Assembly: GCA_963664245.1 (NCBI GenBank)
Contig: OY760934.1
Coordinates: 2,300,376 to 2,364,375, forward strand
Source: Bacteroidales bacterium
GTDB lineage: Bacteria > Bacteroidota > Bacteroidia > Bacteroidales > GCA-2711565
Reading direction: 5' to 3'
Length of the DNA: 64,000 nt
Positions 12,455-64,000 of this stretch are shown in pieces (positions within the stretch are counted from its first letter, which is position 1; every line of letters starts with the position of its first letter). Both the position numbers and the translations under genes were made by a program. The notes under the pieces were generated by a model. That model searched no databases, was not told the DNA's origin, and saw only the letters and a program-made list of their open reading frames with translations.

Positions 12455-12560
12455 GTTAATATTTTTTAAGTTAAAATTTTGGGGCTAAATTTATAAAAAA
12501 GCCTTGATAGTTATGTTTTTTTACAGATATAATCTACAAATGATAATTCGTAGCAGACAA

Positions 12561-14708: not shown

Positions 14709-14733
14709 GTTAATTGATGTTTTAGTTAATATG

Positions 14734-16413
14734 TTAGTTAAGGTCGAGTTTATCCGGTCCTTGTTCAAAAACAATATCTACCGGAATATTTGCCGATCCT
14801 AAACGATTTAAATCTTTTTGAAGCATTTCTTTGATGATGCCTTCTTCTTTTATCCATTTAGCAGCAGCCTCATAATTTCCGTCTCCCTGAATGTGAAGGA
14901 TTTCCTGCATGATAGAAATCATAGCTTTGTGCATTTTGTCGAAATTAATAGTGTAATATCCTTTTTTGTCTTGGGTAAAAGCACCTTTTTCGGCGAAATA
15001 GTTAAAGCGCATCATGTTGGCTTTTCCGTGGGCACTGGCTGCTCCGAAACGGCTCGAGCGGAAAATCCCGGCAAAGAAAGTAACAAAATTGTCCATTACT
15101 TCACCTTCGGTTAGTTCGCCCATTTCGTAAAGTTTGGTAACCAGGTAAAGCCCCATAATGTCGGCTTTTCCTTCTTCAATGGAAGAATATTTTTCTTTTA
15201 AGGCTTCGCGAACCGTTTGACTTCCGTCGATGGTATTTTTAATTCCCATGGCGTGGCCTACTTCGTGGAACATGGTGTTTTCGAAAAATGCGTTAAACGT
15301 AACGTGTTTTAACTGTTTCGGATTGATAAGTATTTCGGCGATTGGCACCAAAATTTTATCAAATTTAGCTTTCATTGCATTTTTAAGTTGCAATTTGCGC
15401 GAACCGCATTTTAAATGAACTTCTTCGTCATTGGGTAAATTAATGGCGATGGTTTTGCTGCCTGCGTTACAATCGCCGGCATAATAAATCACATCGTAGG
15501 CGTTCATATCGGCATTGGCCCCCGGAATTTCTTTTTTGTATTCATCTTCAATCGGCAGACCTTTTTGAAGTTCGGGAAGCATGGCTCCGAATTTTGCCAG
15601 TTTTTTGCTCCAGTCTAAATCTTTTAATAAAATGAAAGATTCATTGGCTGCTTTGTAGCCGTAAAGAGCGTCTTCGTAATTTTCAATCGGGCCTACCACA
15701 AAATCGATGTTTGAATTTTTCATTTCCATCCAGGCAAAATCACTGGGTTGGTAGTCGTCGGTAATTAATGCTTCAGCGCGGAGGGTTAAATATTTTTTCA
15801 AACCTTCGTCTTCAGCCAGGTCAGCAGCTTTTAATAGTAAATCGTGTGCTTTTTGAAGTTTTTCGGCGTAAGCCTCGTGATACCAAACTACTTTTAAATC
15901 GCCGGCTTTATTACGGCGAATCAACGTATACAAACTGGTTTTGTTTGGATCTTCAATGGCTTCAAATTCTTTTTTGGTCATGTCGGCAGGATAAAAATTT
16001 GCCCCGGCCGGTTTGGTTCCGATTTCTTTGATGAACGGTTTATTTCCGTTTAAACGATCCCAGGGACCATAATTGATTTTTGCAAACTTTTTGGTGTTCT
16101 CATCGGTAATTTTGTTAAAGAACGCTTCTTTGTTACCAATGGTTTGCTCCCAATAAATTTCCTGCATAATATCAGCTATTTCAAACAAAATCGGAAGCAT
16201 TTGTTTTTCTTTAACCGACAAATGGCTTACGTCAGCGGTCAATTCAAAAGGCGCGTAAATGGCTAAGCGGTTTTGGATTACTTCATCAGAAACCGGCGTT
16301 AATGCTTCTGCATCCGGAATGATGGTTTGTGAATAATAGGATTTGTCCATGTTACAAGCAGTTATTAATACGAATGTAAAAACAACTAATGAAATTAAAT
16401 GTTTTGTTCTCAT
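14734..16413 (-). CDS. secreted zinc hydrolase, DPP3 (M49)-like family
   Basis: Start trimmed to ATG 16413 (MRTKHLISLVVFTFVLITACN lipoprotein signal). It has an HExxH-type motif MFHEVGHAMG followed by EEGKAD, resembling the two-motif arrangement of DPP3-family enzymes. The family assignment is by recollection only. Confidence 0.5.
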   Translation of the reverse strand: MRTKHLISLVVFTFVLITACNMDKSYYSQTIIPDAEALTPVSDEVIQNRLAIYAPFELTADVSHLSVKEKQMLPILFEIADIMQEIYWEQTIGNKEAFFNKITDENTKKFAKINYGPWDRLNGNKPFIKEIGTKPAGANFYPADMTKKEFEAIEDPNKTSLYTLIRRNKAGDLKVVWYHEAYAEKLQKAHDLLLKAADLAEDEGLKKYLTLRAEALITDDYQPSDFAWMEMKNSNIDFVVGPIENYEDALYGYKAANESFILLKDLDWSKKLAKFGAMLPELQKGLPIEDEYKKEIPGANADMNAYDVIYYAGDCNAGSKTIAINLPNDEEVHLKCGSRKLQLKNAMKAKFDKILVPIAEILINPKQLKHVTFNAFFENTMFHEVGHAMGIKNTIDGSQTVREALKEKYSSIEEGKADIMGLYLVTKLYEMGELTEGEVMDNFVTFFAGIFRSSRFGAASAHGKANMMRFNYFAEKGAFTQDKKGYYTINFDKMHKAMISIMQEILHIQGDGNYEAAAKWIKEEGIIKEMLQKDLNRLGSANIPVDIVFEQGPDKLDLN

Positions 16414-36184: not shown

Positions 36185-36574
36185 ATGGTGAAATTAAACG
36201 ACATCATAGAACAACTTGAAGATTTTGAGCTGGCAGCTTTATACTTTTATCGCTTTTCCGGTTTAATGGATGATTCGAAACAAAAAGTTTTAAATGCTTT
36301 AAAAGAAAGAAATATTGATGTTAATAAGATTGAAAAATATCTTCAAAAACACACACCATCTTCAACAAATCAGGATGTTTGTCCGAGATGTTTGAGTAAT
36401 AAATTTTATTTGTCATTGGAAAATCAGGAGGTTACTTTTAGCCAGTCGACAACAAAATATGAAACCAGGTTTAAAACCTGTATGATTTGCTTGTATAGCG
36501 AGGATAAGGGAATTCATGAAAAAGAAAAATCAAATTTGTTTTCATTTGTGAATTTTTTGTCCAAGAGAAAATAA
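36185..36574 (+). CDS. hypothetical protein with CxxC...CxxC zinc-ribbon-like pairs
   Basis: 129 aa starting 2 nt after the preceding stop, with CPRC and CMIC pairs. No family recognised. Confidence 0.4.
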   Translation: MVKLNDIIEQLEDFELAALYFYRFSGLMDDSKQKVLNALKERNIDVNKIEKYLQKHTPSSTNQDVCPRCLSNKFYLSLENQEVTFSQSTTKYETRFKTCMICLYSEDKGIHEKEKSNLFSFVNFLSKRK

Positions 36575-39660: not shown

Positions 39661-40431
39661 TTAATTTAACGCAAATTCAGAATTACACAGTTCTTTTTTG
39701 CTCCAAGGGATATGTTTAACATTATAATTATCTAAAGCACTAACTATATCTTTTGAAACCTCTTTTTCAATGTCATTGTATAGAACAAAGTTTCTTGTTT
39801 GGGTTTCTCTTGTTTGATTAATGTCATTAAATGCCATTATTGAAGACAAAATGTTATCTTTTTTTACATTATTTATTGTCCTAATTAATCTTTCTGGTTT
39901 GTTTTTTGATTCTGGTATTAAAAAATCAATATTATGATCAAAACCACTTTTTCCAGTAAGCTTAATATCTTTTGAGAAAAATACATTATTACTTCTAAAA
40001 TATAATTCAACGTCTTCTTTAAATAATGAATAAACTGTTTCTTGGGCAAGATTAAATAAATCATTAACTGCTAAAATAGCTTGAAGTAAATAATGTTTTT
40101 TTTGTCCAACACTATTTAATGTTGCATCTACATATAATTGATCATCATCTGAGATTTTAACTCCAAACCCATTTAAAGCTGTTTTTAAAATACTTTCTCT
40201 TTTTGGTGTATTTATTTCTAACCCAGACATTCTTAAATCTGAAATTGTATAACCATTATCTGTAAGCTGAAAATTCCCATTATTTTTTATTAAATATATA
40301 TCTAAATGATCATTATGTCTATCAAGAAAAGGAGTAGATATAGAACATATTTCCCCCTCTTCAATAGTTTTAACTATTGTATTGTTTTTTATCCAATTGA
40401 TATATTCGGTAATTACGTTTTGACAATTCAT
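39661..40431 (-). CDS. DUF1828/DUF1829-like protein (unknown function)
   Basis: 256 aa. The N-terminal pattern ISTPFLDRHNDHLDIYL...LTDNGYTISDL is as I recall for DUF1828, and the C-terminal half is DUF1829-like. The start shares one base with the upstream stop (TAATG). Confidence 0.5.
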   Translation of the reverse strand: MNCQNVITEYINWIKNNTIVKTIEEGEICSISTPFLDRHNDHLDIYLIKNNGNFQLTDNGYTISDLRMSGLEINTPKRESILKTALNGFGVKISDDDQLYVDATLNSVGQKKHYLLQAILAVNDLFNLAQETVYSLFKEDVELYFRSNNVFFSKDIKLTGKSGFDHNIDFLIPESKNKPERLIRTINNVKKDNILSSIMAFNDINQTRETQTRNFVLYNDIEKEVSKDIVSALDNYNVKHIPWSKKELCNSEFALN

Positions 40432-40871
40432 TAATCAAATATTGAAAATTCAACACTTGGTAACCGTTTAATATTACAAAAGTACATTAATTTAGTGAAA
40501 ATTTTTTCAATAGAATCTTCCTTGTTAATCCCAATCTTTGATATTGGAAATGCAAATTTATCATTATATCCTTCTCTGTATAAATGTATATGTGGCCCAT
40601 CAAAAGTAATTCCATCAGGGTTTGTATGCCTTCCCCCATTATCATATCGAAATAATATTATGGTTTGTCTATAACGTTTATTATAAGTGTATTTTGATAG
40701 TTCAAAGCTTCCCCTATAAAAATCTAATAAAAAGATTTCTTTAGTTTCTAAGGAATTAATCTGTCTCGTCCATTTGATTGGAGCCGGTCCTAATTTTATC
40801 GAAGTTTTATAGTCGTCAAAGCCCTTTTCTTGTTTTATTAAATATTCGTATTCGCTTTGAGTAATAGCCAT
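40431..40871 (-). CDS. hypothetical 146-aa protein (His/Asp-rich motif RHTNPDG...GPHIHLY)
   Basis: Clean ORF and first gene of the coupled pair. No family I can name. Confidence 0.5.
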   Translation of the reverse strand: MAITQSEYEYLIKQEKGFDDYKTSIKLGPAPIKWTRQINSLETKEIFLLDFYRGSFELSKYTYNKRYRQTIILFRYDNGGRHTNPDGITFDGPHIHLYREGYNDKFAFPISKIGINKEDSIEKIFTKLMYFCNIKRLPSVEFSIFD

Positions 40872-40979
40872 AATTGTAAATGTTTAATAAAATTATAGGC
40901 AAAAACTATAAAGTTCTGCCAAATCTTTTGGGGAGTACTCAAATATACAAAAAATCCACTTGAAAAAAAATATTAATTT

Positions 40980-41110
40980 CCCTCCTGTTTTAGGAGGGGG
41001 GGGTCGCCAGCTGGCGGACGGGGGGGTAATGCTTCGACTCCGCTCAGCATGACCGGAATCTGAGTTTTTGTCAAACCTTCCTTTAATTCCCCTCCTTGCC
41101 AAGGAGGGGA
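40980..41110. repeat. mosaic of GC-rich hairpin repeat units (REP-like)
   Basis: Hairpins: CCCTCCT/AGGAGGG (40980-40998), the palindrome CGCCAGCTGGCG (41005-41016) and TCCCCTCCTT/AAGGAGGGGA (41088-41110). The unit TTCGACTCCGCTCAGCATGACC (41033-41054) is also found at 63406-63448. Confidence 0.7.
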
Positions 41111-54388: not shown

Positions 54389-55678
54389 ATGAGTTTTATT
54401 GAAGAGTTAAAATGGCGTGGAATGATCCACGATGTAATGCCTGGAACCGAAGATTTATTAGCCAAAGAAATGACCAGTGCTTATGTTGGTTTCGACCCAA
54501 CAGCCGATTCGTTGCACATTGGCCATTTGGTAAGTGTGATGATTTTAAAGCATTTCCAGGAAAGCGGCCACAAACCTTTTGCGTTAATTGGCGGTGCAAC
54601 GGGGATGATTGGTGATCCTTCCGGAAAATCGGAAGAAAGAAACCTTTTAAACGAAGAAACCCTGCGCTATAACGAAGGATGTATCAAAAAACAACTGGCA
54701 AAGTTTTTGGATTTTGATTCGGAAGAGCCCAATAAAGCCGTATTGGTAAATAATTACGACTGGATGAAAGACTATTCTTTCCTGGATTTTGCCCGTGATA
54801 TTGGCAAGCACATTACCGTTAATTACATGATGTCGAAGGATTCGGTGAAAAAACGCCTGAGTGCCGAATCGAAAGAAGGAATGTCGTTTACCGAGTTTAC
54901 GTACCAGTTAATTCAGGGCTATGATTTTCTTCACCTCTACCGAACCTATGGCCTAAAACTTCAATTGGGTGGTTCTGACCAGTGGGGAAACATTACCACC
55001 GGTTCTGAACTTATCCGGAGAATTGAAGGGGGCGAGGCTTTTGCCCTAACCTGTCCGTTGATTACCAAAGCCGATGGAACTAAATTTGGTAAAACCGAAT
55101 CGGGAAATATTTGGCTCGATCCCGAAAAAACGTCTCCTTATGCTTTTTACCAGTTTTGGATGAATGTTTCGGATGAAGATGCAGCCAGATACATCAAAAT
55201 ATTTACTCTTCTTGGTAAAGAAGAAATTGATGATTTAATTGCTAAACATGCCGAAGCACCTCATTTGCGCGAATTGCAAAAAGTATTAGCCAAAGAAATT
55301 ACTGTTCGGGCTCACTCGGAAGAAGAATACAATGCAGCTGTTGAAGCTTCCCAGATTTTGTTTGGTAAAGGAACCACCGAAAGCCTGAAAAAATTAGATG
55401 AACGTACTTTATTAAGTGTTTTTGAAGGAGTTCCTCAAAGCGAGGTAAACAAAGCGGAGATAGAAGCCGGTATGGGAATTATTCAGTTTTTGGTGGAGAA
55501 AACCAATATTTTTGCTTCTAACGGAGAAGCCCGCCGTATGCTGAAAGATAATGGGGTTTCGGTAAATAAAGAAAAAGTAAAAGATACGTACGAAGTTTCA
55601 GCCAGCGATTTGCTGAATGAAAAATACATTTTGGTTCAAAAAGGGAAAAAGAATTATTTCTTGGTGAAAGTTGTATAG
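54389..55678 (+). CDS. tyrS: tyrosine--tRNA ligase
   Basis: Start trimmed to ATG 54389. It has the class I HIGH motif (SLHIGH), the KMSKS variant KFGKT, and a C-terminal S4-like domain. Confidence 0.95.
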
Positions 55679-55708
55679 CTGAAACTGCTTGATATAAAAC
55701 ATAATTAC

Positions 55709-55737
55709 AAAACCCATCACTTAAGCGATGGGTTTTT
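55709..55737. terminator. bidirectional rho-independent terminator between tyrS and the 13-gene operon
   Basis: The 10-bp stem AAAACCCATC (55709-55718) pairs with GATGGGTTTT (55727-55736) across an 8-nt loop. Confidence 0.7.
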
Positions 55738-55754
55738 GTATGTTCGTTTGTTTT

Positions 55755-56198
55755 TTAATTGTAAGCCAGGCGGGTTTCTTTATCGCTCAATGTTGGCTTA
55801 ATTAATTCTTGCCATTTTTCCGATTTCCAGGTTCCCATTTTTTGGTGCGTCAAATAATATTTTTCCGGGATGGGATGTGTTCCCACCACGACTTTAACGC
55901 CAAATTTTTGTTCAATATAATTTTTGAAGTGATTAATACGGGTACATGGCGGATAACCAACCACCATTCCGGTAGCAAAATGAATCACCTCCACGCCGTT
56001 TTTTATCATTTCTTCGGGGGAGTACTCAATGTTTCCGCCGGGGCAACCTCCGCAAGTGGTATAACCGGCAATTTCAACGTCTTCATCTTTTCCGTAAATA
56101 CTAAAACCTCCTTCACGGTTTTGCAATGCCCTGAAACATTTTCCTCCGGCGCAATTGTGGTAACGGTGACAAATGACGATTCCAATCTTTTTACTCAT
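55755..56198 (-). CDS. CGGC-domain protein (Cys/His-rich, putative metal binding)
   Basis: Start trimmed to ATG 56198 (MSKKIGIVICHRYHNCAGGKC), with the CGGCPG motif. It overlaps the upstream gene by 8 nt (ATGAGTAA). Confidence 0.7.
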   Translation of the reverse strand: MSKKIGIVICHRYHNCAGGKCFRALQNREGGFSIYGKDEDVEIAGYTTCGGCPGGNIEYSPEEMIKNGVEVIHFATGMVVGYPPCTRINHFKNYIEQKFGVKVVVGTHPIPEKYYLTHQKMGTWKSEKWQELIKPTLSDKETRLAYN

Positions 56199-56859
56199 GG
56201 TTTTGTAATTTTTGATGCTCGTTAATAATATCTTTAATTTCCTGCATGCTAAAGTTATATTGTTTCCGTAAACGCCCGATGCGTTCGTCATCAGAAATAC
56301 CGGAAGGAATTCCCAGTTTCTTTTTTAATTCGCTGCACGAAATTTTGTATTCCTTTGAAATTTGACCCAGGCTCATTTGCCCGTTAATATCGATGGATGA
56401 ATAAGTATGTTCTTCATCGAGACTACCTGTTTTTTTCTCCTGAATCAGCAGATCATTATTTTTATTTCGGTAATGCGATTCGTCTTCGCCAATTTGAGGT
56501 TTTAATATAAAAGGAATCAAAACAATTAAAACCATGATGACTAAAAAAGCCCAGGCTAGCAATATCCGCAAGACTTTTGCTTTGATCCATTGGGTGTAAA
56601 TACATACGATTTGTTTCCAGTGGAGCAAAATATGTAAGATAAGCAGAACGATTAATACAATGCCTAAAATATAATGGATTTCGCCCCATTGGTGTCGGTC
56701 GAGGTTCATGAATAAAAACTCTCGGTTTTCTCCGTACAGTTCCCATTTTTCCTGACCGGTGGGCAGCATATATTTTACTAATAAACCAATACTTAAAATA
56801 ATAGCCATCACTAGTAACATGATGACATCAATAATGAAGTTTAACCTGTTTTTCCTCAT
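56191..56859 (-). CDS. DUF4405-like membrane protein (His-containing helices, possible b-type heme binding) with a soluble C-terminal tail
   Basis: 222 aa with helices carrying RHQWGEIHYILG and LHILLHWKQI. The C-terminal tail of about 70 aa is hydrophilic. Confidence 0.55.
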   Translation of the reverse strand: MRKNRLNFIIDVIMLLVMAIILSIGLLVKYMLPTGQEKWELYGENREFLFMNLDRHQWGEIHYILGIVLIVLLILHILLHWKQIVCIYTQWIKAKVLRILLAWAFLVIMVLIVLIPFILKPQIGEDESHYRNKNNDLLIQEKKTGSLDEEHTYSSIDINGQMSLGQISKEYKISCSELKKKLGIPSGISDDERIGRLRKQYNFSMQEIKDIINEHQKLQNHE

Positions 56860-56863
56860 AGCT

Positions 56864-57643
56864 TTAAATATTTATTTGGATGCCTGCCTTTATTTCGGGG
56901 CAGTTAAAGTTTTTTTGAAGTTCGGTCAACGCCTCGGATTGGGTGCAATGCGATGGGTAAATCGTGTTTATTTCTTGGCACTTTAAATATGCAATGGTTT
57001 TTTGGGTTTGTGTGTTGTTTTCTTTTAGATGCAAGCCTCCCAAAAGGGTTTTAATGGTTTGGATTCCCGTAACTTTTTTGGCGTGTTCAACAATATTGCA
57101 AATGCCCGAATGGGCGCAACCCGAAATAATTATTAATTCATTGTTTTGGATGATTGCCAGTGCTGAATCATCTAAAACATAATCCGGTTTGTTGTGTTCG
57201 TCAACAAAGGTGGTTTCTTTTGCCTCAAAGTCGTTGGTTCGGGGAATTTCTCCCAAAAAAATAATTGAATTGCTTATATTGTAAGGATTCCGGGTGTTTA
57301 CCAGTTTAAATTTTTTATTCAAATCGAGATAGCAAAGGTTTAAACCGATAAAAGAATGATCGGAATTACGGTAGCGTTTAATGAATGAATAAGGATGGCA
57401 GATTAAGGTTTTGTTGTTTAAAAATTTTAAGCCGTTTCCGTGATCCCAATGCCCGTGGCTTAGCACAATGGTTTCAACTTTTTCTAAATCGACATTGAGT
57501 TTTTTTGCGTTTTCCAGAAACAGCTTGGAGTGTCCGGCATCAAGCAATAAGCTTGTGCCTTCGTGTTCGATATAAAAAGATAAGCCGTGTTCGGCACCAA
57601 AGCCTTTTAAAGCCTGGTTGTCGGTTAAAACTGATAGTTTCAT
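56864..57643 (-). CDS. MBL-fold metallo-hydrolase (COG1237/MJ0301-like subgroup by appearance)
   Basis: 259 aa with HGHWDH and an N-terminal LSVLTDNQA...AEHGLSFYIE pattern. Confidence 0.75.
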   Translation of the reverse strand: MKLSVLTDNQALKGFGAEHGLSFYIEHEGTSLLLDAGHSKLFLENAKKLNVDLEKVETIVLSHGHWDHGNGLKFLNNKTLICHPYSFIKRYRNSDHSFIGLNLCYLDLNKKFKLVNTRNPYNISNSIIFLGEIPRTNDFEAKETTFVDEHNKPDYVLDDSALAIIQNNELIIISGCAHSGICNIVEHAKKVTGIQTIKTLLGGLHLKENNTQTQKTIAYLKCQEINTIYPSHCTQSEALTELQKNFNCPEIKAGIQINI

Positions 57644-58026
57644 TGCTTGCTGTTTTTTAGTTCAAACAAATTTCCGCTTTGGTCTTTTAGAAAAATTAAA
57701 TCATGGGTGCTATTTCGTTGTATTTGTATGATTTCGTAATGTCTCTTTTTTGCTTTGTTAAGAATTATTTCCAGGTTTGTGAATGACAAACACAGATGAT
57801 TACAATTCACCTGTGTTTGTTTATCTGTCAAAAATAGTTCAAAATAAAATTCATCGCTTTGTAATAAAAACACATTGACTTCTTTCTTGATATTAAAAAT
57901 TCTCAAGGCCAACTCTGACGAGAGTATAAAATTTCGAGTGTTATTCATTCCCAAAATATCAATGTAAAAATTTTGGATGTCCTCAAGGTGTGTAATCGTT
58001 ATTGCAATATGTTCTAATTTCATCAA
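57640..58026 (-). CDS. VOC (glyoxalase/bleomycin-resistance/dioxygenase fold) family protein
   Basis: 128 aa with an N-terminal LEHIAITITHLEDIQNFYIDILGM pattern. It overlaps the MBL gene by 4 nt. Confidence 0.55.
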   Translation of the reverse strand: MMKLEHIAITITHLEDIQNFYIDILGMNNTRNFILSSELALRIFNIKKEVNVFLLQSDEFYFELFLTDKQTQVNCNHLCLSFTNLEIILNKAKKRHYEIIQIQRNSTHDLIFLKDQSGNLFELKNSKQ

Positions 58027-58043
58027 AAAAATGAATAATGGAT

Positions 58044-59399
58044 TTATGAATTTGAAATGATTTTATCGTAAGCATTTTCGGCCGCTTTAATTAAAGGGTA
58101 TCCGGCTGGTGATGCTGTTAACAAAGGATGTGTTCCTATTTGAGCCGTCAACAGGGAATTTAGGTTCATCCTGTTTTGAATGATAATCCCGATGGTATTG
58201 GTTAGTTCACCGGATGAAAGTCCACCAAAAACCTCACCTCCTAAAATAATACCCGATTCTTTGCCGACAATTAATTTTATTAATTGTTTGTGGGTGTCGG
58301 CGAGGGTTCCGGGATGGCGGTCGATACCTTCAAATACCCCGGTTACAATATCAAAGCCTTCTTTTTTGGCCATGCTTTCGGTTAATCCGGCAACGCCGAA
58401 ACCATTGCTGCCAAAGGCGGTAGAGAAAATAGAAATGGTTCCGTTAAACGTTTTAATGGCCGAAAGTTTGTACAGGTTCATGCCTGCAATACGAGCTTCG
58501 GCACAAGCCGTTGAGGCTAACATGATTGGACTGGGTTTGCGGGTGAAAAAGTCCCTTTTTTCAGCACAATCGCCCACGGCAAATATATTGGAATCTTCGG
58601 TACGCATGTATTCGTCTACTTTGATGTAGCCGTTTTCCGACATGGGAAGATTTGCTTTTGTTGCAAGGTTTATGTCGGGTTTGTATCCCATGGCTAAAAT
58701 AACGGCATCAGCATCAATTTTTTCTCCGTTTTCGAGCTCAACTTGTTGAACCTTTTGATTCCCGAGAATTTGTTTGATCCCGTTTCCTTTGATGATTTTT
58801 AATCCACGTTCTTCTAAAATACTTTCTACTTTACTTGCAAATTCTTCATCAAAAGCCAGGCTTAAAATATGTGGTAATTTTTCGATGAGGGTAATATCTT
58901 TACCTTTTTTTATTAATTCGTCCGAGATTTCAGCACCGATGAACCCCCCGCCGACAACAACTATTTTTTTATACTCCGATAATTTGGGGATAATATTGTC
59001 GATATAGTTTTTGTTTTTCGGGATGGTGAATACATTTTCCAGATCATGACCTTTTAACCAATGAGGTACGCTGGGAACAGAGCCCGTTCCCATGACTAGT
59101 TTTTCGTAGCTCAGTTTCTGGCCGTTTTTTAATTCAACGCAATTATTTTTACGGTCGATGTCAGAAACTTCTTCATGGATGATGTTTATGCCCATTGATT
59201 CGCACATTTTTTCGGCCGGCAAAATGTTGTTGCTTGTTGATTCAACAGATCCGAACACGTATGGAATTCCACAAGGAATAAGGGTTTGAGATTGTTTTGA
59301 AATAATAGTTACATCCTTGTTTTTATAGATTCTTTTAGCGGTAGTTGCGGCAACCAATCCGGATGCACTACTACCAATAACGATAACATCTGATTTCAT
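58044..59399 (-). CDS. FAD-dependent pyridine nucleotide-disulfide oxidoreductase, CoA-disulfide reductase/NADH oxidase-peroxidase type
   Basis: 451 aa with dinucleotide motifs VIGSSASG and VVGGGFIGAE, a single redox Cys in LIPCGIPYVFG, and GDCA. Confidence 0.8.
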   Translation of the reverse strand: MKSDVIVIGSSASGLVAATTAKRIYKNKDVTIISKQSQTLIPCGIPYVFGSVESTSNNILPAEKMCESMGINIIHEEVSDIDRKNNCVELKNGQKLSYEKLVMGTGSVPSVPHWLKGHDLENVFTIPKNKNYIDNIIPKLSEYKKIVVVGGGFIGAEISDELIKKGKDITLIEKLPHILSLAFDEEFASKVESILEERGLKIIKGNGIKQILGNQKVQQVELENGEKIDADAVILAMGYKPDINLATKANLPMSENGYIKVDEYMRTEDSNIFAVGDCAEKRDFFTRKPSPIMLASTACAEARIAGMNLYKLSAIKTFNGTISIFSTAFGSNGFGVAGLTESMAKKEGFDIVTGVFEGIDRHPGTLADTHKQLIKLIVGKESGIILGGEVFGGLSSGELTNTIGIIIQNRMNLNSLLTAQIGTHPLLTASPAGYPLIKAAENAYDKIISNS

Positions 59400-59400
59400 T

Positions 59401-59739
59401 TTAAAATTTGTTTAGTGTTTTGTTTTTAAAGGCTTTATAAGCCTGTTCAATGTTCATGTCGTTGGCTCCGATATAAATCTCAATGCCGATTTTTTCGAGG
59501 ATTTGTGCAGCATTTCCGCCAGGACCGTTTCCTGTGATTAAAATATCCGGCTTCATTTCAAATAATTTTTGAGCTGTTTTTGGACCCGCACCATGCGCTT
59601 CGTTTTCAATTTCGCGGTTATCGAAACTGTTTATTTCCTGCGTGTCTTCGTCGTATATTAACAGGTAGTCAGTTCGTCCAAAACGGGGATCTATCATTGA
59701 ATCCCACTTGTTTCCTTTGCTTGTAAATGCAATTTTCAT
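59401..59739 (-). CDS. NifX/NifB-C-terminal-type (dinitrogenase FeMo-cofactor-binding fold, MTH1175-like) protein
   Basis: 112 aa with RFGRTDYLLIYD, ITGNGPGGNA and an overall ribonuclease-H-like NifX pattern. Confidence 0.75.
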   Translation of the reverse strand: MKIAFTSKGNKWDSMIDPRFGRTDYLLIYDEDTQEINSFDNREIENEAHGAGPKTAQKLFEMKPDILITGNGPGGNAAQILEKIGIEIYIGANDMNIEQAYKAFKNKTLNKF

Positions 59740-59746
59740 CTGATTT

Positions 59747-60619
59747 TTATATTAAATGTTTAATTTTTTCAAAACTCTCTTTAATAATTTCTTTGACCTT
59801 ACCATCATCGTACTCAACAATACATTTGCCCTGTATCATTGCTTTGGTGAAGCTTTCGTTGTATGGAACAACGTTCAACAGCTCAATGTTTTCTGCAATT
59901 AAATAAGCCTTGATTGTTTGGGTATATTCCGGGTTTATATCAAATTTATTAATGATGCAGCCGGCTTTTATTTTAAACTTTTTAACCAGTTCGTAAACCC
60001 GTTGTAAATCATGAAATCCTGATTTACTGGGTTCGGTAACCAGTACCACGTAATGTGCCCCCGAAAGCGATGAAATAACCGGGCATCCGATTCCTGGGGA
60101 GCCGTCTACCAGGATGATATTTTTGCCTTCTTTTTCTGCAATTTCCCGGGCCTTTTTTTTCACTTCAGCCACCAGTTTGCCAGAATTCTCTGCAGCTATT
60201 CCGAGCTTTGCATGAACCATGTTTTGTTTGTGCTTGGTGGTTGAAATATAAAGCTGTCCCACATTGTTGCTTTTCATTTGTATGGCCTGTGTGGGACAAA
60301 CTTTTTCGCAATACCCGCAACCTTCACAATCGAGTTCGTCAACGTAGAAATTGTTTGCCGTTTCTTTTATCGCATCAAAACGGCAGATGTTTTTACAAAT
60401 CCCGCATTGGGTACATTTTTCCGGGGCAATGTTTGCAATGAACCCGCTGTAGAAATCATTTTGTTCGAGGACATTTGGTTGTAACAATAAATGTAAATCA
60501 GCGGCATCTACATCACAATCGGCCACCACAATATCGTTTATGCCAAGGCATGCAAACGAAGCGGTTATTGAGGTTTTTCCGGTGCCCCCTTTTCCTGATA
60601 TTACCACAATTTCTTTCAT
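59747..60619 (-). CDS. MinD/ParA-type P-loop ATPase with inserted 2x[4Fe-4S] ferredoxin domain
   Basis: Deviant Walker A SGKGGTGKTS, CTQCGICKNIC and CEGCGYCEKVCP. It overlaps the upstream paralog by 4 nt. Confidence 0.8.
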   Translation of the reverse strand: MKEIVVISGKGGTGKTSITASFACLGINDIVVADCDVDAADLHLLLQPNVLEQNDFYSGFIANIAPEKCTQCGICKNICRFDAIKETANNFYVDELDCEGCGYCEKVCPTQAIQMKSNNVGQLYISTTKHKQNMVHAKLGIAAENSGKLVAEVKKKAREIAEKEGKNIILVDGSPGIGCPVISSLSGAHYVVLVTEPSKSGFHDLQRVYELVKKFKIKAGCIINKFDINPEYTQTIKAYLIAENIELLNVVPYNESFTKAMIQGKCIVEYDDGKVKEIIKESFEKIKHLI

Positions 60620-61482
60620 CTTGCTCCCTCCTGGTTTAATTCAAAAACCTGTTGTTTGATGGATTCGAAAACTGCTGGTATGCCAGGTATTTTATCATAA
60701 AATAATTCTCCTTTCGAGTATAATTCGGCAATGTTCCGGTCGTGTTTAATTTTGGCTAGGATGGCGATGTTTTCTTTCCGGCAGTATTTTTCCACTTCAT
60801 CGTTCCCGATCCCGTCGCGGTTTATAACCACCCCCATTTTTTTCTTTAATTTTTTAACGGTTTCTATGGCTAGTTTTAAATCGTGAAAACCAAAAGGAGT
60901 CGGTTCGGTAACCAAAATAACAAAATCAACCTTTTTAATGGTTTCGATAACCGGGCAGGATGTTCCCGGCGGGGCATCAAATATCACAATTGCCGAATTG
61001 TTGAAATGGTTTTCAATATAATCAACACTTTGGGCAATAAGCGGAACAGCTTGTTCCTGGCCGATCATCAAACGACTTTCGATAAAATTAAGTGTATTGT
61101 TTTTAAAATGACGGAGCTCTCCTATTTTTTCGGTAATCATGGGTAGAGAACCGGTAGGGCATAATTCTGAGCAAGCAAAACAACTGTGGCACAATTGAGG
61201 GAAAACGGAAATGTGTTTTCCCAGTTGTATAATTGCATTAAAATTGCAGTTTTTCTGGCAATTTCCACAGTAGGTACAATTGTCTTCTACCCATTCAGGA
61301 ACCATTTTAAATTTATCTTCGGTGTTTACCAGGTTTCCCTGGATAAACAAACCGGAATTGGGTTCCTCAACATCTAAATCAGCTAAAATTACGTCGGAAG
61401 ATTTTGACAAAAACGAAGCAAAATTTGTTGACAGGCTCGTTTTTCCTGTTCCTCCTTTTCCGCTGGCAATGGCTATTTTCAC
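60616..61482 (-). CDS. MinD/ParA-type P-loop ATPase with inserted 2x[4Fe-4S] ferredoxin domain (paralog)
   Basis: Deviant Walker A SGKGGTGKTS, CTYCGNCQKNC and CHSCFACSELCP. It overlaps the upstream gene by 4 nt. Confidence 0.8.
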   Translation of the reverse strand: MKIAIASGKGGTGKTSLSTNFASFLSKSSDVILADLDVEEPNSGLFIQGNLVNTEDKFKMVPEWVEDNCTYCGNCQKNCNFNAIIQLGKHISVFPQLCHSCFACSELCPTGSLPMITEKIGELRHFKNNTLNFIESRLMIGQEQAVPLIAQSVDYIENHFNNSAIVIFDAPPGTSCPVIETIKKVDFVILVTEPTPFGFHDLKLAIETVKKLKKKMGVVINRDGIGNDEVEKYCRKENIAILAKIKHDRNIAELYSKGELFYDKIPGIPAVFESIKQQVFELNQEGAR

Positions 61483-61964
61483 TTTTTTCGTAATATGGTT
61501 TGTTCGGGAACCTTTTGTCCGTTAAAATGTTTATCAACCCAACCGGAGTTTACGTTTTTGCGTTCATCAAAATGTTTAACAAAAGGCTTGATGTCCAGAA
61601 CTGGTGTGCCGTCAAAAACATCTACTTCTGAGAAGTAGAGTTTATGGTTTTCGATTATATTAATTTTTACAATGGAGAACCCGATTTTATTTGGCCGGTG
61701 CGGGCTCCTGATGGCAAAAATGCCATGCTTAACAGGCTCCAAAAATGGTTGCCCGACCAAGGTTGTTTTATCGGTTTGGTGAAAATAATAAATCAAAATA
61801 GCATGCGAAAACCCCTCCAGATCAAGAAGCCCTTCGGTAAATTCTTCCTTTAAGATACAACAGGCCTCGGTTTCGGGTTTAAAGCAACCCTGAATGGGCA
61901 TGTCTTTCGTCTCTTTATAAGGCGATTCAATGAATCCGATAGGTTCAAAACATATCTTTTCCAT
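61479..61964 (-). CDS. TsaA/TrmO-family (UPF0066) SAM-dependent methyltransferase-fold protein
   Basis: 161 aa with IGFIESPY, HRPNKIGFSIV and DGTPVLDIKPF. Confidence 0.75.
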   Translation of the reverse strand: MEKICFEPIGFIESPYKETKDMPIQGCFKPETEACCILKEEFTEGLLDLEGFSHAILIYYFHQTDKTTLVGQPFLEPVKHGIFAIRSPHRPNKIGFSIVKINIIENHKLYFSEVDVFDGTPVLDIKPFVKHFDERKNVNSGWVDKHFNGQKVPEQTILRKK

Positions 61965-61970
61965 GGACTG

Positions 61971-62309
61971 TTAGTGGTCGCAAAGGTTCTCTCCGGTTTT
62001 TAATTGATTGTTTAAGTAATCTGAAACTAATTGCTTGGGACTTCCTGCACCTACACCCATACACACGGCAATGTTGTTTTGTGTGAAAAGGTCTTGTGCT
62101 TTTTGGCCCATTCCGCCGGCAATAATAACATTTACGCCTTGCTCGGCTAAATACCTGGGATAAACCCCGGGTTGGTGAACCGGTGGGGTAATGCTTTGTT
62201 CGTTAGTGATTGTTCCGTTTTCGGTATCAATAATTGCAAATTTTTCGCAATGTCCGAAATGGGCGGTTAGTTCTCCGTTTAATGTTGGTATGGCAAATCT
62301 TTTATTCAT
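61971..62309 (-). CDS. NifX/NifB-C-terminal-type (MTH1175-like) protein
   Basis: 112 aa with HFGHCEKFAIID and VIIAGGMGQKA. Confidence 0.75.
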   Translation of the reverse strand: MNKRFAIPTLNGELTAHFGHCEKFAIIDTENGTITNEQSITPPVHQPGVYPRYLAEQGVNVIIAGGMGQKAQDLFTQNNIAVCMGVGAGSPKQLVSDYLNNQLKTGENLCDH

Positions 62310-62310
62310 G

Positions 62311-62493
62311 TTATTTATTTTTTAATAGTTCTTCCCTTATCATTGTTTTTCCACAGTTGGGGCATTTTAAAGTGGTGCATTTGACCCCTTTTTGATGAGG
62401 TATTTTGGTTCCGCATTTCGCGCAGATACAAAATCCTCCGGGACCAAATGCCCCGCCTTTGTTTTTTCCTTTTCCAGGATTGTTATTTTGCAT
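62311..62493 (-). CDS. 60-aa Gly/Lys-rich, Cys-rich zinc-ribbon-like mini-protein
   Basis: [10 protein letters not shown]....[10 protein letters not shown]. It overlaps the upstream stop by 11 nt and ends 1 nt before the next gene. Confidence 0.55.
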
Positions 62494-62785
62494 TTTTCGA
62501 CTCTAAATCTTTTAACCTGGATTCAAGCACAGAAATATGATCTTTGAACCGTTGGATTTCGTTTCTAAGATCACTTTCGTTGATTTCATTTTCGGGATAA
62601 TTTCTTCTGAAACCTCTTCCAAACCCTAAAAATGAGCGATGATACCTGCGGTTTCTGAACCCTCTTCCCATTCTTCCGAATGACTGGGTTTCGTATCCTG
62701 CCGAATCGTACCCGGCACAATATCCTAATTTTTTTCCGCTTAATGGACCTTTACCTTCCGGCCCTGTTTTGTTTCCTGCTGGCAT
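62483..62785 (-). CDS. DUF5320-like protein (Gly/Arg-rich N-half, coiled-coil C-half)
   Basis: Start trimmed to ATG 62785 ([26 protein letters not shown]...GRGFRN...), with a C-terminal heptad-like [23 protein letters not shown]. Confidence 0.6.
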
Positions 62786-63242
62786 AATGACCTCCTTTTT
62801 TTTGATTTCTGTTTGCACAACATCTGCCGTGACCAAAACCGCCTGCCAGGTTTAAAATGTTTTTTGAATGGCAGGACGGGCATTCTGAAACTGTTTCATG
62901 AATGTTTATATTGAACAAATGTCCACAACTTTTACATCGGATGATGTTTTTTCGGAAATGAACATTGCCCCCGTCAATGAAAAGCATTTTCCCGTCGATG
63001 ATTAATTCCGACACTTTTTTCCGTGCCTGTTCTATTAAACGTGTAAAAGTAGAGCGGGATATTTCCATTTCTTCCGAAGCTTCTTCGTGCGATAAACCAA
63101 GTTTATCAGCTAATCGGAGTGCTTCAAATTCATCCAATGATAAATTTACTTCTTCAAGCATGCTTCCTTTTACCCCTGTTGGTTTAAATTCGTTAAACAA
63201 AGGGGGCTCTTGTACTATCCGGTTGTTTTTTGGTCGAGGCAT
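62751..63242 (-). CDS. DUF134 (UPF0251) family putative DNA-binding regulator with C-terminal CxxC...CxxC zinc ribbon
   Basis: MPRPKNNR...LSLDEFEALRLAD..GLSHEEASEEMEISRSTFTRLIEQARKKV, a sigma70 region-4-like HTH, followed by CKSCGH...CPSCHS. It is the first gene of the operon. Confidence 0.75.
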   Translation of the reverse strand: MPRPKNNRIVQEPPLFNEFKPTGVKGSMLEEVNLSLDEFEALRLADKLGLSHEEASEEMEISRSTFTRLIEQARKKVSELIIDGKMLFIDGGNVHFRKNIIRCKSCGHLFNINIHETVSECPSCHSKNILNLAGGFGHGRCCANRNQKKGGHYASRKQNRAGR

Positions 63243-63259
63243 AATAAATATTTATACCA

Positions 63260-63267
63260 CAAAAGTA
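63260..63267 (-). promoter_or_regulatory. Bacteroidota -7 promoter box TACTTTTG for the DUF134-led operon
   Basis: The minus strand reads TACTTTTG (matches TAnnTTTG), with 17 nt between the box and the ATG at 63242. The palindrome ACATATGT lies just upstream at 63272-63279. Confidence 0.45.
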
Positions 63268-63313
63268 ATGAACATATGTGCAAAAAGCAATAGTGCAGTA
63301 AAATTTTTTTAGC

Positions 63314-63400
63314 ATGAAGTTTTGCAACGATTTGCTGAATAAAAAATGTATCCTTGTTCAGAAAGGGAAGAAGAACTATTTTTCAGTGAAAGTTATATAA
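63314..63400 (+). pseudogene. remnant copy of the tyrS 3' end (28 codons)
   Basis: 63329-63400 aligns with tyrS 55607-55678 at 58/72 nt and 19/23 aa ([23 protein letters not shown] versus [23 protein letters not shown]). Confidence 0.7.
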
Positions 63401-63405
63401 TGATC

Positions 63406-63448
63406 GCTGAGCGGAGTCGAAGCGTCATTTCGACTTCGCTCAATGACC
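63406..63448. repeat. inverted pair of REP-like units forming a 14-bp hairpin; probable convergent terminator of cysS and the ancestral tyrS
   Basis: TGAGCGGAGTCGAA (63408-63421) pairs with TTCGACTTCGCTCA (63429-63442), with one G-U pair and a 7-nt loop. 18 nt (63406-63423) are the exact reverse complement of 41031-41048. Confidence 0.7.
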
Positions 63449-63453
63449 ATTCT

Positions 63454-64000
63454 TTATTCTTTATTCTTTAATGCCTCATCAAAGATCTTTTTAATCATAT
63501 CTTTGAATTTATAACTTACACCATCCTTTTCGTCTAAAACTATAATTCCTTGTTCCGCTAGTTTATTTCTAATTTCATCTGCAGCCTCCCAATCCCTTCT
63601 TTCTTTTGCACTTTTACGGATTTTGCTTAAAACTTCCATCAATTTATCAGAGAGTTCATCATTAGCTGAATTAATTTTTTCTGTTTTTAATCCTAAAATC
63701 TCAAATACAAAATCATTGAAAAGTTGCTTAAGCAAATCAATATCTTCCTGTTTCAGGCTGGCTTTGCCATCGTTCACCGAGTTGATCCATTTTACGCCTT
63801 CAAATAAATGGGCAATCAAAATCGGGCTGTTAAAATCGTCGTTTAAGGCAGCATAGGCTTTTTCTTTTAGTTTGGCGAAATTATAATCAGACGTTTCTCC
63901 GGCTTTTAGTTTGTTAATGGTTTCAACGGCTTTCAATAATTTAGTCAGTCCTTTTTCGGCAGCTACCAAAGCTTCATTTGAAAAATCAAGCGTACTCCTG
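63454..64000 (-). CDS. cysS: cysteine--tRNA ligase, C-terminal part (gene continues beyond window end)
   Basis: The frame stays open to base 64000 (...FSNEALVAAEKGL...). It has LNDDFNSP and the C-terminal RRDWEAADEIRNKLAEQGI pattern typical of CysRS. Confidence 0.8.
   Translation of the reverse strand, partial: RSTLDFSNEALVAAEKGLTKLLKAVETINKLKAGETSDYNFAKLKEKAYAALNDDFNSPILIAHLFEGVKWINSVNDGKASLKQEDIDLLKQLFNDFVFEILGLKTEKINSANDELSDKLMEVLSKIRKSAKERRDWEAADEIRNKLAEQGIIVLDEKDGVSYKFKDMIKKIFDEALKNKE

Follow-up and report, generated by a model that had tools for sequence, protein, structure and literature searches.

A conserved 7.6-kb operon probably inserted at the convergent tyrS/cysS junction of a Bacteroidales species, with two haplotypes at its right-hand edge

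Results

Organisation of the tyrS/cysS locus

We examined the tyrS/cysS junction in the 64-kb window (the whole stretch of DNA analysed), where the two genes converge on a block of 12–13 minus-strand genes spanning positions 55755 to 63242 (Table 1). The tyrS open reading frame opens at TTG 54371, and its product is 99–100% identical to P0001–P0003 and 81–83% identical to the proteins of the sister lineages. The hairpin that follows tyrS has a fold of −15.2 kcal/mol (z −4.4) and found no match in the sequence downstream of tyrS in L165, L171, L001 and L183; since the sister lineages lack it there, this terminator probably came in with the insert. To the right of the block lies a remnant of the tyrS 3' end, which holds a 28-codon ORF opening at ATG 63314 and may reach leftwards to 63297 (AGTAAAA). 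It is followed by a palindrome (63399–63451) and by convergent cysS, whose stop codon is at 63454–63456. The preliminary description gave the same arrangement, with the tyrS terminator and the minus-strand operon between two copies of the tyrS end. The palindrome (folds of −27.4 and −28.2 kcal/mol, z −5.3 and −6.7) takes up all 53 nt from one stop codon to the other, like the spacer of a compact, uninterrupted junction, and its arm belongs to a dispersed REP-like motif that has a second copy at 41028–41045 and is also present in unrelated Bacteroidota loci.

Table 1. Positions of the features of the tyrS/cysS locus in the window.
Feature	Position	Strand	Remarks
tyrS, tyrosine-tRNA ligase	54389..55678	+	429 aa from ATG; Pfam tRNA-synt_1b, SYY_C-terminal
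Left copy of duplicated tyrS 3' end	55590..55678	+	working end of the gene
Hairpin between tyrS and last block gene	55709..55736		between A-run and T-run; probable two-way terminator (terminator scan)
Block gene 13, CGGC-domain protein	55755..56291	-	longest ORF 178 aa; conspecific records 147 aa
Block gene 12, DUF4405 membrane protein	56191..56859	-	
Block gene 11, metallo-beta-lactamase-fold protein	56864..57643	-	
Block gene 10, glyoxalase/dioxygenase-fold protein	57640..58026	-	
Block gene 9, pyridine nucleotide-disulphide oxidoreductase	58044..59399	-	451 aa
Block gene 8, Nitro_FeMo-Co (NifX/NifB-like) domain protein	59401..59739	-	
Block gene 7, MinD/ParA-type ATPase	59747..60619	-	4Fe-4S insert
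Block gene 6, second MinD/ParA-type ATPase	60616..61482	-	4Fe-4S insert
Block gene 5, TrmO_N-domain protein	61479..61964	-	
Block gene 4, second Nitro_FeMo-Co domain protein	61971..62309	-	
Block gene 3, zinc-ribbon-like ORF	62311..62493	-	60 aa
Block gene 2, DUF5320 protein	62483..62836	-	
Block gene 1, DUF134 helix-turn-helix protein	62751..63242	-	first gene of the operon
Operon upstream region, putative promoter (by eye)	63243..63313	-	near-identical in both strain types
tyrS remnant, left part	63314..63332	+	common to both strain types; 2-nt gap relative to tyrS
tyrS remnant, right part, type W	63333..63400	+	in frame, no indels; pN/pS 0.15 against resident tyrS
Long imperfect palindrome	63399..63451		type W strains only; core stem 63409-63441; abuts both stop codons
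cysS 3' end, type W, apparently imported tract	63454..63690	-	last ~77 codons with 14–15-residue extension
cysS, native part	63691..64000	-	94–100% identical among strains; gene cut by window end

The cargo is an ordinary conserved operon of anaerobes, running from DUF134 to CGGC. The same operon, with matching domain content and gene order, was found without mobility genes in unrelated chromosomal contexts of other Bacteroidota (L175/176, L181 and L182). Block gene 3 is uncalled in the conspecific records, and related operons have small ORFs of 57–71 aa at the equivalent place; the best homologues of block gene 9 outside the species are 71–73% identical. The GC content of the block (0.35–0.42) shows no shift from that of its flanks (0.33–0.41), as had been judged earlier by eye. 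No recombinase or transposase domain was detected in any ORF of at least 100 aa in the 64-kb window, which extends the earlier report of none in the block, nor were tRNA genes detected in the window or terminal inverted repeats around the block. The spacers at the block ends measure 76 and 71 nt and thus leave no space for gene relics.

The DUF134, DUF5320, Nitro_FeMo-Co and MinD-Fer4 genes presumably resemble the Desulfovibrio orp (orange protein) cluster, to which the Bacteroidota version would add the disulphide oxidoreductase, MBL-fold, DUF4405 and CGGC genes. This likeness concerns the cargo only. The orp gene cluster is the subject of two papers (PMC3897727; PMC6345978).

A second tyrS 3' end beyond the block

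The last 72 nt of tyrS (55607–55678) recur at 63329–63400, at an offset of 7722, with 58 of the 72 nt and 19 of the 23 residues of the encoded peptides identical, exactly as counted by hand in the preliminary description. An independent repeat search of the window returned the same pair (55603–55677 and 63325–63399; 75 nt, 81%). In an ungapped 72-mer scan of both strands of the whole window, this copy stood 9.4 sd above the mean and the runner-up matched at 38/72, so that the window holds no further copy of the segment. The gapped local alignment scored 83, against 32 for the best of 2000 dinucleotide shuffles, and reached left to GAAGTTT (55592 and 63316) across a 2-nt gap, where weaker similarity had already been noticed. 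The copies are identical over at most 13 consecutive nt (CGATTTGCTGAAT), and the sequences 3' of the two copies are unrelated.

The copies differ by 13 coding changes and by the stop codon (TAG to TAA); 13 of these 14 changes are transitions and none is an indel. Nei-Gojobori counts (Sd 8, Nd 5; pN/pS 0.15) agree with the eight silent substitutions reported before. Under neutrality the excess of silent changes has P = 0.001; if instead tyrS changed at silent sites only and the remnant was free to decay, P is 0.03. Two of the four residue changes in the second copy are also present in working TyrS proteins of relatives. Until recently, selection acted on this copy at the protein level, and because the silent-site bias is real, the remnant in the window derives from a different tyrS allele, a proposal of the preliminary description that is upheld here. 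Its pS against resident tyrS is 0.59; for the sister lineages pS is about 1.0, and third-codon positions between the species and these lineages are near saturation.

Empty and filled sites in relatives

None of 160 relatives fetched from genome and metagenome collections carries the block downstream of tyrS. In L002, L045 and L064, tyrS converges directly on cysS, which is the empty site expected from the earlier reading. On the tyrS flank, the sister lineages (L165–170 and L171–174) share the gene order for about 10 kb (aspS...SLT-flavodoxin-epimerase-tyrS). In L165, L166, L171 and L172 cysS-aminotransferase is shared on the other flank as well, and the cargo between tyrS and cysS differs from the block and amounts to only some 1 kb (a TPR gene or ORF6N fragments). 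Among the other 160 tyrS loci, none has a distant second tyrS end; only L117, from another lineage, carries a second copy, in the form of a tandem duplication of its tyrS 3' end with a unit of about 210 nt. In L165 the inserted TPR gene lies between the two arms of a 22-nt direct repeat, and the tyrS 3' end of L164 is another short imported patch at this locus. Within the species, all four assemblies carry the block at the site seen in the window, and no empty site was found. These comparisons support the view that the 7.6-kb block was inserted at the tyrS/cysS convergent junction in the ancestor of the species. Its age and direction rest on parsimony, and the sister lineages could conceivably have lost the block instead.

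Two haplotypes in the species

The conspecific strains carry the block in two forms, type A (L161 and L162) and type W, the form of the window; five sequences were compared, three of them type W, and each haplotype was represented by at least two assemblies. The two types diverge over about 360 nt (~63333 to ~63690, with the right edge near 63690–63735) between flanks that are 94–100% identical. In type W this tract starts inside the remnant, passes through a hairpin unlike that of type A and takes in the final ~77 codons of cysS, whose product is there 41% identical between the types, whereas type A has a decayed, indel-bearing tyrS remnant, its own hairpin and a clade-typical CysS tail. The type A tail is 67% identical to those of L165, L171 and L002, a value that also holds for the 80 residues ahead of it; for the W tail, identity is 34–42% to every tail compared, and the 80 residues before it are 95% identical to type A. 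A protein word search with the W tail gave no matches, its identity to representative proteins was at most about 50%, and neither a match in plasmid and phage collections nor any close sequence was found for the tract. The W tract is also discordant inside, as its tyrS piece is near this clade and its CysS tail stands apart from every Bacteroidota tail in the comparison; thus, a single donor genome fits only if its cysS tail was already odd.

The type A remnant aligned to the tyrS 3' end with indels and a score of 39 (shuffle maximum 32), while its part right of the breakpoint, tested alone, had weak tyrS similarity (P about 0.03–0.09). The left part of the remnant, being common to both types and carrying the 2-nt gap, belongs to the old scar. 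The type A hairpin AACCCTGCGAGGGTTTTAAACCCTCGCAG matched at 26/29 positions, with two compensatory changes, a hairpin located 83–112 nt downstream of tyrS in the sister lineage L183/L185, and had no other occurrence in 2.78 Mb of fetched DNA; the L183 sequence right after the tyrS stop, TTTTTTTATAGATAAAG, resembles by eye TTTTTTATAGATGTAGGAAAG of type A. The L183 and L185 contigs stop at or within this hairpin, which may therefore be a repeat and not an orthologous terminator. Given these matches, type A looks like the original scar, with the displaced native tyrS end, and positions 63333–63400, the W hairpin and ~77 cysS codons look like a later import, the tyrS piece apparently from a working gene of another lineage. 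The insertion, the allele difference and the lack of a recombinase were rightly read in the preliminary description, but not the ancestral state, since the remnant, hairpin and adjacent cysS 3' end of the window differ from the form that looks original, in L161 and L162, with its other, decayed remnant.

Discussion

We propose an account in two events, a block insertion followed by the type W patch, to which we assign a probability of about 0.6; which event came first and how the DNA recombined are deduced from the sequence comparisons. The ancestral locus would have consisted of tyrS and cysS converging on a short spacer with a hairpin. In the ancestor of the species, the 7.6-kb operon with its upstream region and terminator would have entered tyrS about 87–105 nt before its end; tyrS would have retained or gained a working 3' end, and a second tyrS end with the native spacer, native hairpin and cysS would have come to lie beyond the insert, decaying there as in type A. 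Without a recombinase, the likeliest route would be pairing of homologous DNA at the tyrS 3' end, which is strongly conserved, by a single (Campbell-type) crossover with a circularised fragment that carried a tyrS 3' piece beside the operon or, as a variant, by template switching in break repair with about 90 nt of the target re-copied. Later, within the species, a patch of about 360–400 nt would have been recombined in from another lineage with an uninterrupted tyrS-palindrome-cysS junction, the right crossover falling in cysS and the left one in the old remnant and not in the real tyrS, so that the block was retained. The left crossover would have had very little homology available to it. 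In the outcome, type W, the tyrS end would look fresh, and both the palindrome and the C-terminal domain of CysS would be foreign. No donor for either event was found among the fetched loci, the representative proteins or the plasmid and phage collections, and in none of the fetched loci did the operon lie directly downstream of tyrS.

Islands and integrative elements enter the 3' ends of tRNA, tmRNA and housekeeping genes and restore them, as SCCmec does at rlmH. A site-specific element of this kind at the tyrS 3' end, with the two copies as attL and attR and with integrase and transfer genes later deleted, would account for direct repeats of a gene end around an insert that leaves the gene intact and for the empty or otherwise filled sites of relatives, and CGATTTGCTGAAT could pass for its core. 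We nevertheless consider it unlikely, and the decayed element entertained in the preliminary description becomes the less likely option: the block and the window lack a recombinase domain, the short end spacers have no room for relics, the cargo is a single chromosomal operon that occurs elsewhere without mobility genes, composition does not shift, a distant second tyrS end is confined to this species among the loci compared, and the best-preserved copy sits in the secondary tract. A trustworthy identical core is missing. Membership of the block among 3'-end-targeting elements is not supported. The polarity of the haplotypes could also be reversed, with type W as the original, the insertion having brought the remnant, palindrome and odd cysS tail, and type A as a later import. 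That three of five sequences are type W, that the type A hairpin is very near that of the sister L183, as in an import from the clade, and that the right-hand part of type A is weakly tyrS-like would all fit, but we regard this as improbable. At 67% identity, the type A cysS tail is as far from the sister lineages as the remainder of the gene is (67–70%), which indicates vertical descent and not recent import; its decayed remnant lies, indels included, in register with the left part common to both types, so the donor would have needed the old scar too; and it is the W tail that is the outlier to the whole clade.

More doubtful still is a history in two steps, in which the tyrS 3' end and spacer were first duplicated in tandem, through slippage or unequal crossing-over, and the block then entered between the copies. 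The cases in L117 and L165 demonstrate that duplications do occur at the tyrS junction, but this history needs two independent events where one suffices, and a tandem duplication copies the spacer, as in L117, whereas the sequences after the two copies here are unrelated. Although the segment is rich in A and the DNA evidently comes from a metagenome-assembled genome, chance, low complexity or an assembly chimera has a negligible probability as the origin of the repeat, being refuted by the gap between 58/72 and the runner-up, by 0/2000 shuffles reaching the alignment score, by the preserved reading frame and by the recurrence of the structure in four independent assemblies, where each haplotype was found two or more times.

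For the two-event account, precedents exist. Circularised linear DNA is known to integrate by a single crossover, and homology-facilitated illegitimate recombination is likewise documented (PMC3240628; PMC5361080, the latter also the source through which we cite de Vries & Wackernagel 2002 and Prudhomme et al. 2002 for the second process). As here, foreign or relocated DNA enters beside a conserved anchor without an element recombinase, and a Campbell-type crossover leaves the anchor duplicated on both sides with the native downstream sequence after the distal copy; those cases, however, are laboratory ones with defined substrates, whereas ours is read from a decayed scar in which junction microhomology is no longer readable. 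In Rhs, CDI and T6SS effector loci (PMC5361080), a module likewise anchors on the conserved upstream part of a gene, and the old 3' end is displaced downstream and persists as a remnant. Those loci encode toxin/immunity functions under diversifying selection and form arrays of functional orphans, in contrast to the essential aminoacyl-tRNA synthetase, 87-nt non-functional remnant and metabolic operon cargo seen here. Homology-anchored, recombinase-free insertion is the most likely mechanism, an ordinary kind of event that has left at the tyrS/cysS junction of this species a clear but ordinary genome scar.

A second tyrS 3' end and the operon that it brackets

We found that tyrS, a normal class I synthetase gene, has its final 24 codons repeated, in the same orientation, on the far side of a 7.6-kb minus-strand operon (hereafter the block), with 58 of 72 nucleotides and 19 of 23 residues identical. 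The preliminary description had reported such a second tyrS 3' end downstream, and the comparison with controls bears it out: gapped alignment of the two ends scored 83, the best of 2000 dinucleotide shuffles reaching 32, and in an ungapped scan of both window strands with the 72-mer the next best match was 38/72, the 58/72 match standing 9.4 sd above the mean. An independent repeat search of the window recovered the same pair (75 nt at 81%). To the right, the copies cease to be similar at the stop codon; to the left, they do so near 55590 / 63314, where the alignment extends over a 2-nt gap to GAAGTTT (55592 / 63316); AGTAAAA at 63297 / 55576 is a possible further match beyond unalignable sequence, and the left edge of the repeat is blurred. 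The second copy (hereafter the remnant) lies within a 28-codon ORF opening at ATG 63314. The longest identical run between the copies is 13 nt (CGATTTGCTGAAT), although the right copy here is probably for the most part a secondary import and its counterpart in the other haplotype (type A, below) is decayed.

Features of the tyrS/cysS interval in the window
Feature	Position	Strand	Remark
Left direct repeat	55590-55678		contains tyrS 3' end
Last 24 codons of tyrS	55607-55678		
Hairpin	55709-55736		after tyrS; flanked by A and T runs
Block genes	55755-63242	minus	12-13 genes, tightly packed
Right direct repeat	63314-63400		contains second tyrS 3' end
Second copy of the 24 codons	63329-63400		
Long palindrome	63399-63451		right of remnant
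cysS stop codon	63454-63456		convergent; after palindrome

From its far end, the block encodes DUF134 (helix-turn-helix), DUF5320, a 60-aa zinc-ribbon ORF, Nitro_FeMo-Co, TrmO_N, two MinD/ParA-Fer4 ATPases, Nitro_FeMo-Co, a disulphide oxidoreductase, a glyoxalase fold, an MBL fold, DUF4405 and CGGC. This cargo matches the DUF134-type operon of anaerobic Bacteroidota, with the full gene set by Pfam and the same order at L175/176, L181 and L182, where homologous operons (oxidoreductase 71-73% identical) occupy unrelated chromosomal contexts with no mobility genes or tyrS-like remnant nearby. It may be related to the orp (orange protein) gene cluster of Desulfovibrio. In one conspecific assembly the DUF4405 gene call has a length of 101 aa in place of 222 aa, and the gene may be disrupted (L163 11812-12479, equivalent to window 56191-56859). 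Elsewhere in the window, two adjacent Peptidase_M3 paralogues on the minus strand (10349-12454 and 12612-14774; ~75% DNA identity) are apparently an old tandem gene duplication.

Empty and differently filled sites in relatives

The block was present in all four conspecific assemblies (L161-L164), none of which offered an empty site, and did not follow tyrS at any of the 160 loci taken from genome and metagenome collections. In the nearest lineages (TyrS 81-83% identical), the upstream gene order was kept over ~10 kb (aspS, TPR, response regulator or kinase, TatA, SLT/LysM, DUF4837, DUF2147, SBP/SLT, flavodoxin, epimerase, tyrS), and the far side (cysS, aminotransferase) was likewise kept wherever contigs reach that far. 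Their tyrS-cysS gap held a 320-aa TPR gene (L165-168) or ORF6N fragments (L171/172), and nothing more. Among other relatives, lipoprotein-like genes were found in the gap of L001 and a convergent kinase in that of L186, and tyrS converged directly on cysS in L002, L045 and L064, the arrangement that the preliminary description had predicted for an empty site. The interval is thus variable, since its cargo differs among lineages, and the operon is present there solely in the window's species among the loci compared. The proposal that the block was inserted into the end of tyrS is supported by the sister lineages, which lack it within the same flanking gene order, and by L002, which lacks it too.

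The conspecific contigs were found by a homologue search with TyrS; an exact-sequence look-up of the window TyrS with either start codon returned no match, and a metagenome scan with TyrS gave nothing closer than 75%. Six sister contigs (L169, L173, L174, L183, L184, L185) end just past tyrS, L183 and L185 at or inside a hairpin, suggesting either content that varies among strains or assemblies broken at a palindrome. In L171 (11291-12243; also L172), 17-nt tandem repeats (GAGCTCATGAGTTCATCA...) directly follow the tyrS stop codon, with fragmented ORF6N ORFs in the gap.

Two haplotypes within the species

Over the ~20 kb compared, the four conspecific assemblies were 94-100% identical to the window outside one strongly divergent tract and a few short patches of 88-92% identity (e.g. 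L164 at 55562 and 56357). The divergent tract runs from ~63333, inside the remnant, to ~63690, inside cysS, and separates two haplotypes. In type W (window, L163, L164) the tyrS copy is in frame and is accompanied by the palindrome and a CysS of 504 aa; in type A (L161, L162) an indel-bearing tyrS-like sequence (GAAGTTTTACCAACGATTGTCCGAATGAAAAAAAACATTTCAGAAAAAGG...) is accompanied by another hairpin and a CysS of 490 aa. Both types share the first 19 nt of the remnant (63314-63332). Across window 63219-63332 (DUF134 start, upstream region and left remnant) the two types differ by ~7%, more than in the neighbouring coding sequence, so that on its left side the exchanged tract may be less sharply bounded than stated.

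Over its final ~63 residues, type A CysS was 67% identical to L165, L171 and L002, a level that the 80 residues before them also show (67-70% with L165 and L171). The tail of type W was only 34-42% identical to all Bacteroidota tails compared (41% to type A), yet over the 80 residues preceding it the two types agreed at 95%. Each tail is a genuine C-terminal domain of CysRS, with the W form running 14-15 residues past the usual end, so that one species holds two forms of this domain of an essential enzyme (window 63454-63690, minus strand; L161 19047-19290). The type A hairpin matched a hairpin 83-112 nt past the tyrS stop codon of L183/L185, whose contigs stop at or inside it, at 26/29 positions with two compensatory changes, and it had no further occurrence in the 2.78 Mb of DNA compared. 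By eye, the L183 sequence right after the tyrS stop codon (TTTTTTTATAGATAAAG) also resembles type A (TTTTTTATAGATGTAGGAAAG). The whole type A remnant aligned with the tyrS 3' end at a score of 39 (shuffle maximum 32); its part right of the breakpoint, taken alone, was marginal (P about 0.03-0.09). For the terminator after the working tyrS, no counterpart was found in the sister lineages. An 11-nt by-eye match between this terminator and the cysS-side hairpin of L165 (AAAACCCATCA...GATGGGTT) fell below the score cut-off and was set aside.

Judged from these comparisons, type A looks like the displaced native tyrS end with its native spacer and terminator, because its CysS tail is clade-typical, its hairpin and spacer are L183/L185-like and the working tyrS has a terminator without sister counterpart. 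The preliminary description therefore holds in part: insertion into the tyrS terminus and the involvement of two tyrS alleles stand, and the geometry of a displaced tyrS end fits type A, but the window's own copy, hairpin and cysS end appear to be a later overlay and not the ancestral junction.

Origin of the type W tract

Between the type W piece and the resident tyrS we counted 8 synonymous and 5 non-synonymous changes (pS 0.59, pN 0.09, pN/pS 0.15). The silent excess, from which two tyrS alleles had been proposed, is real (P = 0.001 under neutrality; P = 0.03 if a free-running pseudogene diverges from a gene changing at silent sites alone). There were no indels, and 13 of the 14 changes were transitions, the pattern that selection on two-fold degenerate codons would produce. 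Of the residues peculiar to the W copy, K at position 5 and the terminal I are each found in working TyrS of relatives, so just two changes, Y>C and L>S, would have to post-date inactivation. Placing the 72-nt ends among relatives gave little resolution on which copy is native (58-59/72 to the resident tyrS, 57-58 to L171-174, 50-55 to other close relatives).

The W palindrome takes up all 53 nt that separate the two stop codons and is contiguous with the tyrS piece and the foreign cysS tail. On the simplest reading, the W tract would have been imported as one patch from a genome whose tyrS/cysS junction was uninterrupted, the crossovers lying in cysS and within the old remnant. It is discordant within itself, the tyrS piece being clade-like and the CysS tail an outlier, and its donor may itself be a mosaic. 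Short imports do occur at this locus, since the working tyrS 3' end of L164 (~11198-11252, equivalent to window 55586-55640) carries 10 SNPs in 55 nt and resembles such an import; its variant bases partly equal the window's remnant and partly differ from it. The W tract had no match in plasmid or phage collections. An exhaustive search of representative proteins with the W CysS tail gave just CysS tails, at most about 50% identical, and no donor, and a word-index protein search with the 88-residue tail gave no candidate, a result attributed to the index and not to absence, as the conspecific CysS was missed too.

One arm of the W palindrome (GCTGAGCGGAGTCGAAGC) has a second copy on the minus strand at window 41028-41045, within an intergenic palindrome cluster (40960-41110; GGAGGGG/CCCTCC) beside a DUF1828/DUF1829 and DUF6978 gene pair (39661-40871). 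Because the motif of this arm also turns up in unrelated Bacteroidota loci (L030, L047, L096, L144, L153), it looks like a dispersed REP-like element.

Mechanism of insertion

The block would have entered without a recombinase, leaving a direct duplication of ~87-105 nt of the target with native downstream sequence behind the distal copy. This could have happened by a single homologous crossover with a circularised fragment bearing a tyrS 3' piece beside the operon, or by template switching during repair. Single-crossover integration of circularised linear DNA and homology-facilitated illegitimate recombination (HFIR) are documented (PMC3240628), and at T6SS and Rhs loci old 3' ends are displaced by incoming modules (PMC5361080). 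Campbell-type crossover or HFIR duplicates the anchor on both sides up to the point where donor and recipient homology ceases, as in the tyrS copies here, and places native sequence after the distal copy and insert-borne sequence after the proximal one, which is matched by the type A spacer and hairpin and by the tyrS terminator, which has no counterpart in the sister lineages. We infer that the original insertion was recombinase-free and homology-anchored. No donor with the operon adjoining tyrS was present among the fetched tyrS loci or four operon contexts, in a clade that is thinly sampled, nor did representative proteins or plasmid and phage collections yield a donor for the insertion or the import patch. 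An attempt to locate a mosaic boundary inside tyrS failed, third-codon positions being near saturation against the sister lineages.

The preliminary description had also suggested a decayed integrative element, two hallmarks of which are seen here: direct repeats with the tyrS 3' end bracket the block, and sites without it exist in the sister lineages and L002. However, no recombinase, integrase, resolvase or transposase domain was detected by Pfam in any block gene, in agreement with the earlier reading of the block, or in window ORFs of at least 100 aa (two of which, 4315-5376 and 36185-36574, had no Pfam match). Moreover, the spacers at the block ends measure only 76 and 71 nt, and what the block carries is one ordinary conserved operon of no atypical composition, with GC content uniform over the region and nothing related to mobility; a decayed element is therefore the less likely explanation. 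Neither tRNA genes nor Rfam matches were found at the locus. A transposon or IS insertion would bring a transposase, terminal inverted repeats and a short target-site duplication, whereas here the block ends have no inverted repeats and the ~87-nt duplication is far longer. Simple tandem duplication of the tyrS end does not fit the 7.7 kb between the copies and the unrelated sequences downstream of them. The one other second TyrS C-terminus among the 160 loci is such a tandem duplication, in a marine lineage (L117 11210-11600; TyrS 68% identical), where the unit of ~210 nt, unlike the window's copies, includes the downstream spacer.

The tyrS/cysS junction as a possible exchange spot

A second, independent junction insert with a duplicated gene end is found in L165 (also L166-L168), where a 22-nt direct repeat including the cysS stop codon (11346-11367 / 12434-12455; 20/22 identical, reached in 0/300 shuffles) brackets a 1.09-kb insert with the TPR gene between tyrS and cysS. 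It is conceivable, at roughly one chance in four, that the convergent tyrS/cysS junction in this Bacteroidales clade is a recombinase-free cargo-exchange spot with the highly conserved synthetase 3' ends as homology anchors. If so, this would account for the lineage-specific cargo (operon, TPR gene, ORF6N fragments, lipoprotein genes, kinase), for the brackets of duplicated gene ends (~87 nt of tyrS here; 22 nt in L165) and for the two CysRS C-terminal domain forms within the species.

The whole locus is a fresh instance of a known event type, of modest interest, and leaves the understanding of genome evolution unchanged. It cautions that a well-preserved remnant beside an insert need not be the original scar, a reading that strain comparison overturned here. 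The CysRS C-terminal dimorphism is a small curiosity, possibly worth attention. Finally, the locus offers a clean natural example of a whole operon placed beside an essential gene, apparently without mobile-element machinery, and of an insertion scar that can later serve as a landing pad for more recombination.
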